Source: an uncultured Gammaproteobacteria bacterium (GTDB lineage Bacteria; Pseudomonadota; Gammaproteobacteria; DATFLG01). Taken from it: a DNA stretch of 64,000 nt. The notes beneath the pieces were generated by a model. The model saw only the letters and a list, made by a program, of their open reading frames with translations, searched no databases and was not told the origin of the DNA. This document shows positions 28,923 to 33,456 of this stretch, in pieces. Made by a program: the position numbers and the translations under genes. Each line of letters starts with the position of its first letter. Position 1 is the first letter of the stretch. The DNA is taken from the NCBI GenBank assembly GCA_964571225.1, contig CAZNBB010000002.1, positions 7,421-71,420 on the forward strand, written 5' to 3'.

Positions 28923-29984
28923 ATGCCGACGATTGTCATCATCGACGATCAGTTCACCAGCCGCCAGATCCTGGTGGAGCTGGTCAAGGGGATCGAAGAA
29001 CACCTGACGGTGGAGACGTTCGCGTCGCCCACCGAAGCGCTGCGGTGGGCCCACTGGCACCAGCCGGATCTGGTGTTGACCGACTACAAGATGCCGGATA
29101 TGGACGGCATCGAGTTCGTCCAGCGCCTGCGTACGCTGTCGGGCTGCGGTCAGGTCCCGATCGTGATGATCACCTCCCTCGAGGATCGAAACGTGCGCTA
29201 CAGCGCTCTGGAGGCCGGTGTCACCGACTTTCTGATCAAACCGGTGGACCACATCGAATGCCGGGTCCGGTGCCGCAACCTGCTCACCCAGCGCCGCCAG
29301 CAGAGGATCATCCAGGACCGCACCCGTTGGCTGGAGCGCCGGGTATCGGAGGCCACCAGCGAGATCCGCGTGCGGGAACAGGAAACCCTGCTGCGACTGG
29401 CAAAGGCTGGCGAATACCGCGACGAAATCACCGGCAATCACGTCATCCGGATGGCCAAGTTTTCCCGCCTGATCGGAGAAAAGCTGGGGCTGTCCGAGGA
29501 AGAATGCGGCGTCATAGAGCTGGCCGCGCCCATGCACGACATCGGCAAGATCGGCATCCCGGACCACATCCTCAGCAAGCCCGGGCGCCTGACCGATGAG
29601 GAGTTGGGCGTGATGAAGACCCACAGCCAGATCGGCTACGAGATCCTGCGGGACAGTCCCTCCAAATATCTGCAGATGGGTGCCGTGATCGCTCTCGGTC
29701 ATCATGAGAAGTTCGACGGCAGCGGCTACCCCAAGGGTCTGCGCGGCGAAGAAATTCCTCTGGTGGCGCGTATTGTCGCCATTGCGGACGTCTATGACGC
29801 GTTGACCTCCGAGCGGCCCTACAAGCAGCCTTGGTCGGTCGACGACGCGGTCCGCTTCATGAATGCCGAACGCGGCAAACACTTCGACCCGCGTTGCCTG
29901 GATGCCTTCAACTCCCAGTTGGACAAGGTGCTGAAGATCCAGTATCTGCTTCGCGACGATACCGGCGCCCAGCAGCTCAGCTGA
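28923..29984 (+). CDS. Two-component response regulator with an HD-GYP c-di-GMP phosphodiesterase output domain (RpfG-like)
   Basis: MPTIVIIDDQ...LVLTDYKMPDMDGIEF (REC with the phospho-Asp) followed by HD...HHEKFDGSGYPKGL (HD-GYP). 353 aa. Confidence 0.88.
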   Translation: MPTIVIIDDQFTSRQILVELVKGIEEHLTVETFASPTEALRWAHWHQPDLVLTDYKMPDMDGIEFVQRLRTLSGCGQVPIVMITSLEDRNVRYSALEAGVTDFLIKPVDHIECRVRCRNLLTQRRQQRIIQDRTRWLERRVSEATSEIRVREQETLLRLAKAGEYRDEITGNHVIRMAKFSRLIGEKLGLSEEECGVIELAAPMHDIGKIGIPDHILSKPGRLTDEELGVMKTHSQIGYEILRDSPSKYLQMGAVIALGHHEKFDGSGYPKGLRGEEIPLVARIVAIADVYDALTSERPYKQPWSVDDAVRFMNAERGKHFDPRCLDAFNSQLDKVLKIQYLLRDDTGAQQLS

Positions 29985-30220
29985 CCATCCCGCCGTCTGC
30001 GCCGCGCCGCTCAAGTTCGGCCGCCCCGTGCCGATTCACCCCGTAAGCCGGGAAAAACCGGTTTCCGCGCCGCTCCCGATCAAAGCGGGGGCGGAGACAA
30101 CGGAGCGGCGGCCCCGACGCCGGCCATAGGGTCGCGCGCCGGGGCCGACGTGCCACAGCACGGCGAACAGCGTCTGGCTGCGCGCCGGACGCGACCGGCC
30201 ATCGGTCGCGCCCAACGACT

Positions 30221-31255: not shown

Positions 31256-31293
31256 CCCCCGGCCACCCTACCGGGGGCCCACCATCGGCCCGT

Positions 31294-33456
31294 TCATTGC
31301 GCCTGTCCGGCGGGTACCGCAGCGGCTGTCGAAATGCCTGCCGCCACCAACTCGAGCAGTCGATCCGGCTCCACCGGCTTGGTCAGAAAGTAATCGGCAC
31401 CGGCCCCGTAGGCCGCCTGCTGACTCTCCCGGGTTGCGTCCGCAGTCAGCACGATGACCGCCGTCCCCCGCCGTCCGGCGGGAAGCGCGGCGCGGTAGCG
31501 GCGTACCGCGTCCAGCCCCGACAGATCCGGCATCTGTATATCGACGATCGCCAACGGGTAGCGGTCGGTATTCAACTCGGCCAGCAGCGCCGCGCCGGAG
31601 CCGACCAGGTCGGGCCGGTAGCCCGCCCTTTCCAGCACGCGTCGTATCACCAGTTGATTGATCCGGTTGTCCTCCCCCACCAGTATGCGCACGTCCCGGG
31701 GCCGGCTTGCAGCGGTCGCCGGCTGCTCTGCCACGGGCGCAGTCCTGTTGTACAGGATCTGCGCCAGATGCACAGCCGCACAGAGTTCCGCAGCGTCCAA
31801 CGGCAGACCTGCGATGGCGCTGTAACCGGCCTGCAGCGCACGCTCCCGGCCCGCAACCGACAGGTCCGCGGCCAACAGCAGCCAGCGCGGGCCGGAATCG
31901 GGACCTTTGCGACGCCAGTGCGTCGGCAACGCCAGTACCCTCGCGTCACTGCAATTTTCAGCGACGACCCATACCCAGCGCCTGGCTTCCCGGTCCGGAC
32001 GCCACTCCAGCGCATCGACCAGCTCCTGGCGCGTATGGCAGAAGGTGGCGCCGGTGACGCCCGCCGCCCGGAACTGTCCGTCCAGCACGGCCGCATCCTC
32101 CCCCCGCACGGAATACACCAGAACTTCTGCACCCACGGGCCTTTCCAGCGGATGATCTGACGCCGGCACTGTCTCCAGGCCAAGTTCGATCCAGAAGCAA
32201 CTCCCCGCTCCGGGGCTGCTCTGCACCCCGATGCTCCCGCCCATCAATTCCACCAGCTGCTTGGCGATCGCCGTGCCCAGCCCGGTGCCTCCGAACCGGC
32301 GTGCCGTGGAATCGTCCGCCTGGCGGAACCGTTCGAAGATGTGGGCTTGCGCCTGTGGCGCGATGCCGGCGCCCGTATCGCGCACTTCCAGACGCAGCCA
32401 CTGGGCCTGGGGATGGGACTGAGCCCTGCACAAGCGGATAACCACCTGCCCGCGGTCCGTGAATTTCACCGCATTGCCCACCAGGTTCGTCATCACCTGG
32501 CGCAGGCGGCTGGCGTCCCCGCGGCGGTGGAACGGCAGCCGTGTATCCACATCCAGCAACAGGGACAGCCCCTTCGCGGCCGCCTGGGCCCGGAACATGT
32601 GCCAGACCGACGACAGCAGCTCGTACAGGTCGAACGGGTTGTCTTCCAGGGTGATGCGCGCTTCTTCGACCTTGGCGAAATCCAGCACCTCGTCCACCAG
32701 TGCCCCCAGGCCCACCGCCGACTCGTGGATATCCTGCACCAGTTCCTTGTCCTGGGCGGTGAGATCCCGTCCCTGCAACAGATGGCTGAGTCCGATGACC
32801 GCATTGAGGGGCGTGCGCAACTCGTGGCTCATATTGGCGAGAAAGCGGCTCTTGGCGTCATTGGCCGCCTGGGCGTGACGCCTCTGGGCATCCAGTTGCC
32901 GCAACAGACGCCAAACGTAGAAGGGCACCACGCTGAGCAGCAGGATCATGCCGGTCATCAGTGTCGGCTGCCCGTACCAGAAGGGGGTGGCTACCGCCAT
33001 TGCCACGAAACCCGTGAGCGCCAACCCGGTGGCCAACAGCAGATAGCGCCCTCCATAGCGCAAGCCGTTGCCCACCGCGACCCACAGGTAGACCGGAAAC
33101 AGCGGCACCCCGAAGGTGCCCAGGTAGTGCATGACGGCACTGAGACCGGCGATGTCGGCCAGCGCGGCGGCCACCCGTCGCATGGCGGACACGTTGCGGC
33201 TGAAGACGATGAGCGCCACCCACCCACAGGACAGCACGGCGAACGCCGCGCCGATGACAATCACGGGGTCGGTGATGCCGGCGACGGCCCCGACCTCGAG
33301 TCGCACGAGGGCCGTTACATAGGCAAGATAAGCAACAGCGATCCCGACCCGGATGAGCGCCTGCTCGTGCTCGGTATCCTGCCGCCCCGCTCCGAGACGG
33401 GCCAAGCGCCCGATCAACGGATTGCGGCCCATCCGACTGGTTTCTTTTGCATCCAC
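31294..33456 (-). CDS. Hybrid sensor histidine kinase: membrane sensor domain, HisKA, HATPase_c, a degenerate receiver-like region, then REC
   Basis: H-box ...FLANMSHELRTPLNAV, G-boxes DTGAGIA and GGTGLGTAI, and a C-terminal REC with ILVGEDN...IVDIQMPDLSGLD...TKP. 720 aa. Confidence 0.88.
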   Translation of the reverse strand: MDAKETSRMGRNPLIGRLARLGAGRQDTEHEQALIRVGIAVAYLAYVTALVRLEVGAVAGITDPVIVIGAAFAVLSCGWVALIVFSRNVSAMRRVAAALADIAGLSAVMHYLGTFGVPLFPVYLWVAVGNGLRYGGRYLLLATGLALTGFVAMAVATPFWYGQPTLMTGMILLLSVVPFYVWRLLRQLDAQRRHAQAANDAKSRFLANMSHELRTPLNAVIGLSHLLQGRDLTAQDKELVQDIHESAVGLGALVDEVLDFAKVEEARITLEDNPFDLYELLSSVWHMFRAQAAAKGLSLLLDVDTRLPFHRRGDASRLRQVMTNLVGNAVKFTDRGQVVIRLCRAQSHPQAQWLRLEVRDTGAGIAPQAQAHIFERFRQADDSTARRFGGTGLGTAIAKQLVELMGGSIGVQSSPGAGSCFWIELGLETVPASDHPLERPVGAEVLVYSVRGEDAAVLDGQFRAAGVTGATFCHTRQELVDALEWRPDREARRWVWVVAENCSDARVLALPTHWRRKGPDSGPRWLLLAADLSVAGRERALQAGYSAIAGLPLDAAELCAAVHLAQILYNRTAPVAEQPATAASRPRDVRILVGEDNRINQLVIRRVLERAGYRPDLVGSGAALLAELNTDRYPLAIVDIQMPDLSGLDAVRRYRAALPAGRRGTAVIVLTADATRESQQAAYGAGADYFLTKPVEPDRLLELVAAGISTAAAVPAGQAQ

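Follow-up and report, generated by a model that had tools for sequence, protein, structure and literature searches.

Tyrosine at the phospho-histidine position of a kinase-less RpfC paralogue in a probable remodelled rpf cluster of an uncultured gammaproteobacterium

In Xanthomonas campestris pathovar campestris (here Xcc), the Rpf system combines RpfG, a regulator made of a receiver (REC) and an HD-GYP domain, with RpfC, a polytopic sensor kinase that carries the motif R-x-D-S/T-E-H-x-Q (PMC5391125). According to Cai et al (2017, PMC5391125), the diffusible signal factor (DSF) binds to the first 22 residues of Xanthomonas RpfC, and Arg15, Asp17, Ser18 (where Thr also works), Glu19 and Gln22 of the sequence R-A-D-S-E-H-A-Q are essential (PMC5391125). 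The rpfGHC operon also encodes RpfH, a membrane protein of no known role with a likeness to the input domain of RpfC; deleting it alters four transcripts (PMC3744752). Here we analyse a 64-kb stretch of DNA from an uncultured gammaproteobacterium (hereafter the window), which at positions 28923-33456 holds three intact genes, encoding a REC plus HD-GYP regulator, a protein with five transmembrane segments and a histidine phosphotransfer (Hpt) domain (TM-Hpt, or the stump), and a hybrid histidine kinase. On balance, the sequence favours reading this locus as a remodelled rpf cluster, of the kind that leads from a DSF-type fatty-acid signal to cyclic di-GMP (c-di-GMP), and we regard the module as one that lies evolutionarily within the Rpf/DSF family and works like its members. 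As in Xcc, there is a regulator of this type together with a polytopic kinase bearing the sensor motif, a kinase-less input-domain protein is encoded between the two, in the manner of RpfH, and the relatives of the window carry an RpfF-like crotonase at the same site. Unlike in Xcc, the kinase gene is convergent rather than co-directional, its product has an extra pseudo-receiver and no Hpt, the RpfH-like protein bears an Hpt fold in which Tyr has taken the place of His, and neither rpfF nor rpfB lies within the 64 kb.

Three other systems are close enough to be informative. PA1396 of Pseudomonas aeruginosa, in which an RpfC-like input domain of five helices precedes HisKA, HATPase and REC and for which SMART lists no HPt, senses the DSF of other species (PMC6536496). 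Like the window kinase, it is an Hpt-less RpfC-like sensor without an adjacent synthase, and by analogy it indicates that such kinases function; unlike the window kinase it has no pseudo-receiver, its partner, PA1397, is no HD-GYP protein, and a neighbouring kinase-less paralogue has not been described. The RcsC/RcsD (YojN)/RcsB system couples an Hpt-less hybrid kinase to a separate, membrane-anchored and kinase-derived Hpt protein (mentioned in PMC3842833). This split architecture is present in the window, and would be usable by its relatives L005 and L003, which retain the phosphorylatable His that the window lacks (L and P numbers are our handles for related loci and proteins). RcsD, however, still has its kinase core in degenerate form, along with a functional His, whereas in the window stump the core is deleted outright and the His is gone. 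Finally, the plant pseudo-HPts (Arabidopsis AHP6 and the rice PHPs) have an Hpt fold without the phospho-His that is kept by selection (PMC11497342), as the stump appears to have; unlike the stump they are eukaryotic and soluble and have Asn for His, and a function of their kind is only inferred here. Each ingredient of the locus therefore has a precedent, in RpfH, in the Hpt-less PA1396, in RcsD and in the plant pseudo-HPts. In the literature that we reached, we found no description of a long-kept protein in which an RpfC input domain runs straight into an Hpt without the His. The Spt and Tpt domains of P. aeruginosa ChpA are Hpt-like with the His replaced, but ChpA is a CheA-type chemosensory protein, neither RpfC-type nor a membrane stump.

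The features of the stump are as follows.

30221..31255, + strand: TM-Hpt, a predicted kinase-less RpfC paralogue of 344 residues from ATG 30221; G+C content at third codon positions (GC3) 0.80 in frame
30311..30754, + strand, about residues 31-178: TM-Hpt input domain, a degenerate RpfC-type polytopic domain recognised by family alignment and homology statistics
30893..31225, + strand, about residues 225-335: Hpt four-helix-bundle domain (Pfam Hpt, E 6.6e-7)
31055..31057, + strand: TAC codon of Tyr279, at the phospho-His position and one transition from CAC (His)

Residue numbers run from ATG 30221, which is kept as MR[HY] in L002, L003 and L005; gene callers begin the protein at 30269, giving 328 residues. 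Its C-terminal part scores 29.9 bits against the Pfam Hpt gathering cut-off of 24.6, and its sequence matches in the PDB are HptB and LuxU. An AlphaFold2 model of the whole protein was poor (mean predicted local distance difference test score, pLDDT, 55.9), so the Hpt part alone was used; there pLDDT was 72-83 and the best Foldseek matches were all HPt proteins (7c1i, TM-score 0.82). In pairwise HMMER alignments, Tyr279 (LYALKSSAANIGA) falls on the phospho-His of both P. aeruginosa HptB (7c1i, AHSFKGG) and Vibrio harveyi LuxU (1y6d, SHALKSSAASFGA). Indeed, when 168 Hpt domains from the 151 best relatives were aligned to a hidden Markov model, the acceptor column held His in 158 cases, with Tyr in five, Gln in three, and Ser and Leu in one each. 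An initial annotation of the window, made from the sequence, had placed Tyr in the phospho-His register, and these alignments bear it out. It had also counted a Gly-to-Ser exchange as a defect, which is not the case: at this position, four residues past the acceptor, Ser (99 of 168) outnumbers Gly (65), and LuxU itself reads HALKSSAA. The domain is thus an Hpt by fold and profile, minus the defining phospho-accepting His.

The same TAC codon recurs in three separate datasets, namely the window (L001), L002 (an ENA metagenome; 89% amino acid identity, and 94% nucleotide identity over the whole gene) and L004 (an NCBI metagenome-assembled genome, or MAG; 62% amino acid identity over a 111-residue fragment, about 77% at the nucleotide level). 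Orthologues, to which the initial annotation had looked for a decision between His and Tyr, exist in both states: Tyr is found in L002 and L004, whereas P0003 (from L003) and L005, which are about 47-50% identical to the window TM-Hpt, carry His (HLHALKGDAANIGA). Since the photolyase gene groups the window with L004 (83.5% identity) against L005 (74% to either), the Tyr sequences form a clade, and therefore a single His-to-Tyr change, later than the origin of the stump architecture, is indicated. In the window lineage, then, the canonical phospho-acceptor is absent from the Hpt. Scans of genome and metagenome contigs with the TM-Hpt alignment returned one orthologous locus (L005) and one irrelevant weak match (L010); the TM-Hpt clade is rare.

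An exhaustive HMMER search with TM-Hpt, whose homologues include P0001, P0002, P0003 and P0004, found 910 relatives. Nearly all of the best 150 of these 910 are hybrid kinases of 810-890 residues that match TM-Hpt in two stretches, the N-terminal membrane part and the C-terminal Hpt, and members of these clusters are labelled 'sensor histidine kinase RpfC' by JGI. Against P0009, residues 45-178 of the stump align to 52-185 and residues 225-337 to 729-839, leaving some 540 residues missing, and no DHp match was found in TM-Hpt. By these alignments the stump is best taken as an RpfC paralogue from which the whole HisKA-HATPase-pseudo-receiver-REC core has been removed, such that a degenerate input domain and an Hpt fold remain. 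The DSF-sensor motif has been lost as well, GASAIRTTH standing in place of RxD[ST]EHxQ; the His-type orthologue reads RTDSRQAY. As a kinase-less membrane protein with homology to the RpfC input, encoded directly after an RpfG-like gene, TM-Hpt is RpfH-like.

The membrane domains of the stump and of the neighbouring kinase had been described in the initial annotation as clearly paralogous. Their homology is significant (BLASTP E 1e-6; Smith-Waterman score 102 against 37.7 ± 6.5 for 1000 shuffles, z 9.8), with about 20-23% identity over the whole domain and 35% over a BLAST segment of 49 residues. However, the stump domain is not a duplicate of its neighbour's sensor: in the family input-domain comparison with TM-Hpt, the adjacent kinase scores 23.5 bits and ranks 104th of 121, whereas P0009 scores 53 bits. 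Blocks of about 30 residues with more than 50% identity were not recovered, the best ungapped 30-residue window having 12/30 (40%). The likeness of an MHYLG motif in the kinase to MHYT-type sensors also falls away, as neither membrane domain matches MHYT or any other Pfam family meaningfully, every match at E≤10 lying far below its gathering score, and the motif's position is variable in the family alignment. When the kinase N-terminus was compared with Pfam at E≤10, the sole match was Bax1-I (E 0.038; 14.2 bits against a cut-off of 34.1), with no MHYT, and neither Pfam nor NCBIfam holds a model that fits either membrane domain or the pseudo-receiver.

Loss of phospho-accepting residues is not confined to the window lineage. 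We sampled 137 proteins with an RpfC input domain and one Hpt from the list of stump-similarity hits, in which proportions may differ from those of the family as a whole. Both the kinase His and the Hpt His are present in 123; the kinase His alone is absent from seven, both are absent from six (in five lineages), and the Hpt His alone is absent from one. Loss of the Hpt His is thus associated with loss of the kinase His (Fisher exact test, p 1.3e-5, the window clade entering as a single case). Three kinds of kinase-dead form can be told apart: proteins of full length in which another residue stands for the H-box His, core-deleted proteins, and the window type. Among the full-length proteins, P0077 has Glu for the H-box His and Gln for the Hpt His, the H-box His alone is lost in P0083 (Arg), P0049 and P0142 (both Gln), DHp cannot be recognised in P0087, whose Hpt site holds Leu, and P0102 combines an intact H-box with Tyr at that site. 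The core-deleted P0021 (L011 5857-7806, - strand) and P0116 consist of input domain, pseudo-receiver, receiver and a Gln-bearing Hpt, and P0031 of input domain, receiver and an Hpt with His; P0022 (535 residues) and P0115 (624 residues) have no DHp match and are candidate core-deleted forms. The distribution suggests that the Hpt His tends to be lost once kinase function has gone, which argues that these proteins stand outside a phosphorelay. Also in the hit list is P0007, a multi-Hpt protein of 1672 residues with Tyr and Ser variants.

The features of the kinase encoded opposite the stump are as follows.

31294..33456, - strand: RpfC-family hybrid histidine kinase without Hpt; 720 residues from GTG 33456, 712 from Met 33432; Pfam HisKA, HATPase_c and Response_reg
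33361..33384, - strand, residues 25-32 (17-24 from the called Met): DSF-sensor motif R-Q-D-T-E-H-E-Q, directly before the hydrophobic domain
32887-33360, - strand, about residues 33-190: polytopic input domain, following the sensor motif
32176..32856, - strand: transmitter core, with HisKA at residues 201-265 (His211 in SHELRTP, nt 32809-32829) and HATPase_c at residues 313-427 (N, G1 and G2 boxes)
31762..32127, - strand, residues 444-565: pseudo-receiver, with Ala at the phospho-Asp position and without the acidic pair and Lys
31345..31686, - strand, residues 591-704: C-terminal receiver (Response_reg 4.1e-20), with E595-D596, Asp639 (AIVDIQMP), Thr671 and Lys693

Its motif agrees with Xcc RpfC at 5/5 of the essential residues, the S18T change being functional (PMC5391125). 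Because of this agreement with mutationally defined residues we take the kinase to be an RpfC-type sensor, with a predicted DSF-binding motif and all catalytic motifs kept; the comparison with RpfC was made through the published sensor residues, and the helix count comes from the family alignment. The strict motif occurs in 37 of 126 N-termini in the family. Word-indexed searches, one from the kinase N-terminus alone and one from an input-domain profile of 14 sequences, gave almost no matches, and no Xanthomonas RpfC or RpfH among them. The pseudo-receiver region has no match in Pfam, but a profile of it from 119 relatives (about 120 residues) aligns with the REC profile in hhalign (98%, E 2.3e-13). 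Pfam, hhalign and motifs therefore agree with the earlier description of this protein as HisKA-HATPase followed by a receiver-like region without an acidic pocket and a true REC. It is 66.8% identical to its L005 orthologue, and its best full-length relative is P0084 (39.6% identity).

The regulator has the features listed next.

28923..29984, + strand: RpfG-like response regulator, 353 residues; Pfam Response_reg 2.9e-25 and HD_5 4.3e-37
28932-29258, + strand, residues 4-112: REC, with Asp54 in LVLTDYKMP
29427-29894, + strand, residues 169-324: HD-GYP, with HD at 29532-29549 and HHEKFDGSGYP at 29700-29732

The Pfam matches, together with the HD and HHExxDGxGYP motifs, are in agreement with its annotation as an RpfG-like HD-GYP response regulator. 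It is 95.5% identical to its L005 orthologue and 68% identical to the gene in the rpfG position of L008, and is a predicted RpfG-type phosphodiesterase; its sequence is under very strong constraint. A second HD-GYP protein of 696 residues is encoded at window 51932-54022 (+), with PAS_4 before HD_5 and no receiver; in Xanthomonas RpfS, a PAS_4 domain binds DSF (mentioned in PMC5391125).

Three further features complete the locus.

31256..31293, no strand: intergenic gap of 38 nt between TM-Hpt and kinase, with the inverted repeat CCCCCGG-N8-CCGGGGG (7 bp, GC-only) and no T tract
28460..28669, - strand: DUF2970 gene, which together with valS marks the left-hand side of the rpf slot and is conserved there in relatives
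25397-28318, strand not stated: valS, which pairs with DUF2970 as this marker

The outline drawn by the initial annotation stands in part. The three open reading frames lie where it put them, at 28923-29984 (+), 30221 or 30269-31255 (+) and 31294-33456 (-), and the 38-nt gap with convergent stop codons is measured in the sequence. Regulator and kinase both bear features that define the Rpf type, and the parts of RpfC are spread over two proteins, the kinase ending after its receiver and the Hpt standing on the separate TM-Hpt. An rpfF-like gene had been reported as missing nearby, and tblastn with the L008 and L006 crotonases likewise gave no match in the 64-kb window, nor in L005; the window also holds no second Hpt. 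Of the features of an Rpf/DSF system, an RpfG-type regulator and an RpfC-type sensor are therefore present, and a one-polypeptide RpfC with Hpt and a linked RpfF are not. The inverted repeat in the gap was not called by a terminator scan, and promoter and terminator scans of the locus gave no useful result. The corresponding gap of L005 is 39 nt long and differs in sequence.

In L005, the gammaproteobacterial MAG GCA_037381405.1 with an 876-kb contig, the order valS, regulator, stump, convergent kinase, photolyase and ferrochelatase is shared with the window, and gene order throughout the His-type sister lineage (L003, L005) is identical to that of the window. In L004, 83 nt separate the Tyr-type gene from the photolyase gene that comes next, and no remnant of the kinase is left. 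The last 138 bases of L004 (2430-2567) match the window reversed (35565 to 35428) right after the forward match, probably a fold-back artefact of assembly. Among related gammaproteobacteria (ValRS 71-73% identical to the window's), L008 has valS, DUF2970 and a REC plus HD-GYP gene, then an 857-residue RpfC-like kinase with its own Hpt, convergent with a crotonase gene; L006 and L007 have rpfC-like and rpfF-like genes after valS-DUF2970, without a REC plus HD-GYP gene at the site. In L011, valS and the REC plus HD-GYP gene precede a 649-residue protein, a crotonase and the convergent 857-residue RpfC-like kinase P0084, and the 649-residue protein, which lacks HisKA and HATPase, is made up of RpfC input, pseudo-receiver, receiver and an Hpt whose His position holds Gln. 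The crotonase adjoins rpfC in L006, L008, L011 and L012, and these crotonases exceed the cut-off of NF006452 and score second-best to the RpfF model. Genes for an acyl carrier protein and a ketoacyl synthase adjoin the rpfC-like and crotonase genes in L011 (342-1809) and L012 (10695-12324), and may be part of signal synthesis there. By position and domain content, the stump is an RpfC paralogue without a kinase core, occupying the place that immediately follows rpfG. Its ancestor may have been a resident full-length rpfC, as in L008, or an already kinase-less paralogue, as in L011, although the stump is not specially similar to the kinase-less protein of L011.

Selection on the locus was gauged by pairwise Nei-Gojobori estimates of the ratio of non-synonymous to synonymous substitution (dN/dS), which for these short genes gave, between the window and L005, 0.033 for the regulator, 0.09 for ValRS, 0.09 for ferrochelatase, 0.17 for photolyase, 0.25 for the kinase and 0.38 for TM-Hpt. 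The regulator is the lowest and TM-Hpt the highest of eight neighbouring genes. Within the Tyr clade, the Hpt fragment shared by the window and L004 has a dN/dS of 0.35, with an excess of synonymous change (p 2.6e-4), and no stretch of TM-Hpt is better conserved than the hairpin around residue 279. The stump is weakly constrained in both the His and the Tyr state, with purifying selection persisting. Elsewhere in the window, 37272-38525 (+) encodes a 417-residue protein with no Pfam match that is 83% identical in L005 (dN/dS 0.14).

These observations suggest a model in which the ancestor of the clade would have used a three-protein relay, from His211 to Asp639 of the kinase, on to the Hpt His of the stump and finally to Asp54 of the regulator. 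The change from His to Tyr would have closed the route through the stump. The kinase would now phosphorylate the regulator directly, the route supposed for Hpt-less hybrid kinases such as PA1396, or via an unlinked Hpt, or might alternatively be uncoupled from it, and the stump would persist as a weakly constrained RpfH-like accessory. If active, it would act by contact and without phosphotransfer: its conserved Hpt face could dock on a receiver, as a pseudo-HPt that damps or insulates signalling in the way of AHP6, or it could pair with the kinase through its membrane domain, either alone or in combination. AHP6 itself competes for partners and makes no transfer. With no linked synthase, the organism would listen for DSF-type signals and would not produce them.

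A more specific proposal is that the Tyr stump is a bacterial membrane-anchored pseudo-HPt, which regulates DSF/c-di-GMP signalling by docking on an active RpfC or RpfG and belongs to a recurrent class of phospho-dead RpfC paralogues, possibly including RpfH. This we put forward tentatively, and consider rather unlikely as a whole. The class would comprise full-length forms without both His residues and core-deleted forms whose Hpt site holds Gln, Tyr or His. As for the marks of a pseudo-HPt, the fold is there and the His is missing, and purifying selection is moderate.

Several points weigh against the model. Between close pairs, TM-Hpt has a dN/dS of 0.59 for the Tyr type (p 0.03) and 0.69 for the His type (not significant), and no extra relaxation is visible after the change from His to Tyr; purifying selection and the conserved hairpin mean that the stump still matters, and do not tell in what mode. 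Likeness to RpfC and RpfH was set by published descriptions and residues. The absence of a second Hpt and of rpfF applies to the 64 kb and not to the rest of the genome. The clade consists of five sequences, two of them fragments, and its kinase-less member L004 is known from a single 2.6-kb MAG contig with the fold-back at its far end. Finally, the Tyr clade conserves His294, fifteen residues past the acceptor position, where the His clade has Tyr, and an alternative acceptor is therefore thinkable.

The strongest competing explanation is that the stump is a relic in decay, such that after loss of rpfF and the change to Tyr it, and perhaps the kinase too, became functionless while other inputs kept the regulator. 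We regard this as possible, if unlikely. It would fit the ranking of dN/dS across the eight genes, the close-pair values of 0.59-0.69, which are barely or not different from 1, the missing kinase of L004, the lack of a crotonase in 64 kb, the joint loss of Hpt and kinase His across the family, and the deletion of Xcc rpfH, which altered four transcripts only (PMC3744752). On the other hand, reading frames are intact in every sequence seen, synonymous change is in significant excess between the window and L004, the hairpin at residue 279 is the best-conserved part of the protein, and the kinase retains both its catalytic motifs and its sensor motif. A relay that still works, with the acceptor moved to His294 or another His on the next helix, is improbable. 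In its favour, His294 is found in all three Tyr-type sequences where the His type has Tyr, an apparent swap, and the kinase lacks an Hpt of its own while the window offers no other. However, the +15 column is variable (Y 42, A 25, F 21, H 18 and others among the 168 domains), with at most three of its 18 His residues from the Tyr clade, and the swap was rejected as a moved acceptor on these grounds; nor is His294 in the acceptor register, as would be needed for it to be the true phospho-His, the case the initial annotation had named as fatal to its reading. In solved Hpt hairpins, those residues of the following helix that stand level with the acceptor lie at about +22 and +26 (YPD1 Gln86 and Arg90), some two turns away from +15. 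Moreover, His269 and His271 are not conserved in L004, which keeps Tyr279 and His294 without an adjacent kinase.

The initial annotation had itself read the locus as RpfC split into parts, with the membrane sensor domain duplicated; a recent copy of the kinase's own sensor would then have been placed onto a separate Hpt protein. Homology of the membrane domains and adjacency of the genes speak for this, but the low rank of the neighbouring kinase beside P0009 speaks against it, as does the content of the post-rpfG slot, which holds a full-length rpfC in L008 and a kinase-less paralogue in L011. Furthermore P0084, the best relative of the kinase, is a complete RpfC-like protein with its own Hpt and is likewise convergent. 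Fast evolution of the stump somewhat weakens the argument from rank and synteny; even so, we consider a split of this kind very improbable. That the Tyr codon is really a His codon, misread or misassembled, is scarcely credible: TAC and CAC differ by one transition, but the same codon is present in L002 and L004 at 94% and about 77% nucleotide identity, from independent samples and assemblers.

A side observation touches on the proposed sensing of DSF. Polymyxin resistance induced by DSF in P. aeruginosa runs through the arn genes. The window contains an arn-like row at 12127-18937 (+), encoding an ArnT-like protein (PMT_2 + Arnt_C), a DegT aminotransferase, a family-2 glycosyltransferase, a formyltransferase, an epimerase/dehydratase and a polysaccharide deacetylase; the row is complete for aminoarabinose modification of lipid A, with the halves of E. 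coli ArnA as separate genes. Sensing of DSF by PA1396 induces expression of pmrAB and resistance to polymyxin B in P. aeruginosa (PMC6536496). A tie between the arn-like row of the window and DSF sensing is only a thought.

RpfH has been without an assigned role ever since the rpfGHC operon was described. Together with its relatives, the window provides a natural gradation of kinase-dead RpfC paralogues, in some cases next to an active RpfC and RpfG; the gradation runs from full-length proteins with both phospho-His residues mutated, through core-deleted forms with REC and Hpt, to an input domain with an Hpt carrying His and finally one carrying Tyr. The series suggests how proteins of the RpfH type may originate and which of their surfaces are kept, namely the input domain and the Hpt face. 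The natural pair of His and Tyr orthologues is a test case for a bacterial pseudo-HPt that damps a phosphorelay; if true, such a reading would give the enigmatic RpfH a testable function. The survival of a DSF-type receptor and an HD-GYP effector without a linked synthase is as would be expected of an organism that eavesdrops on the signals of others.

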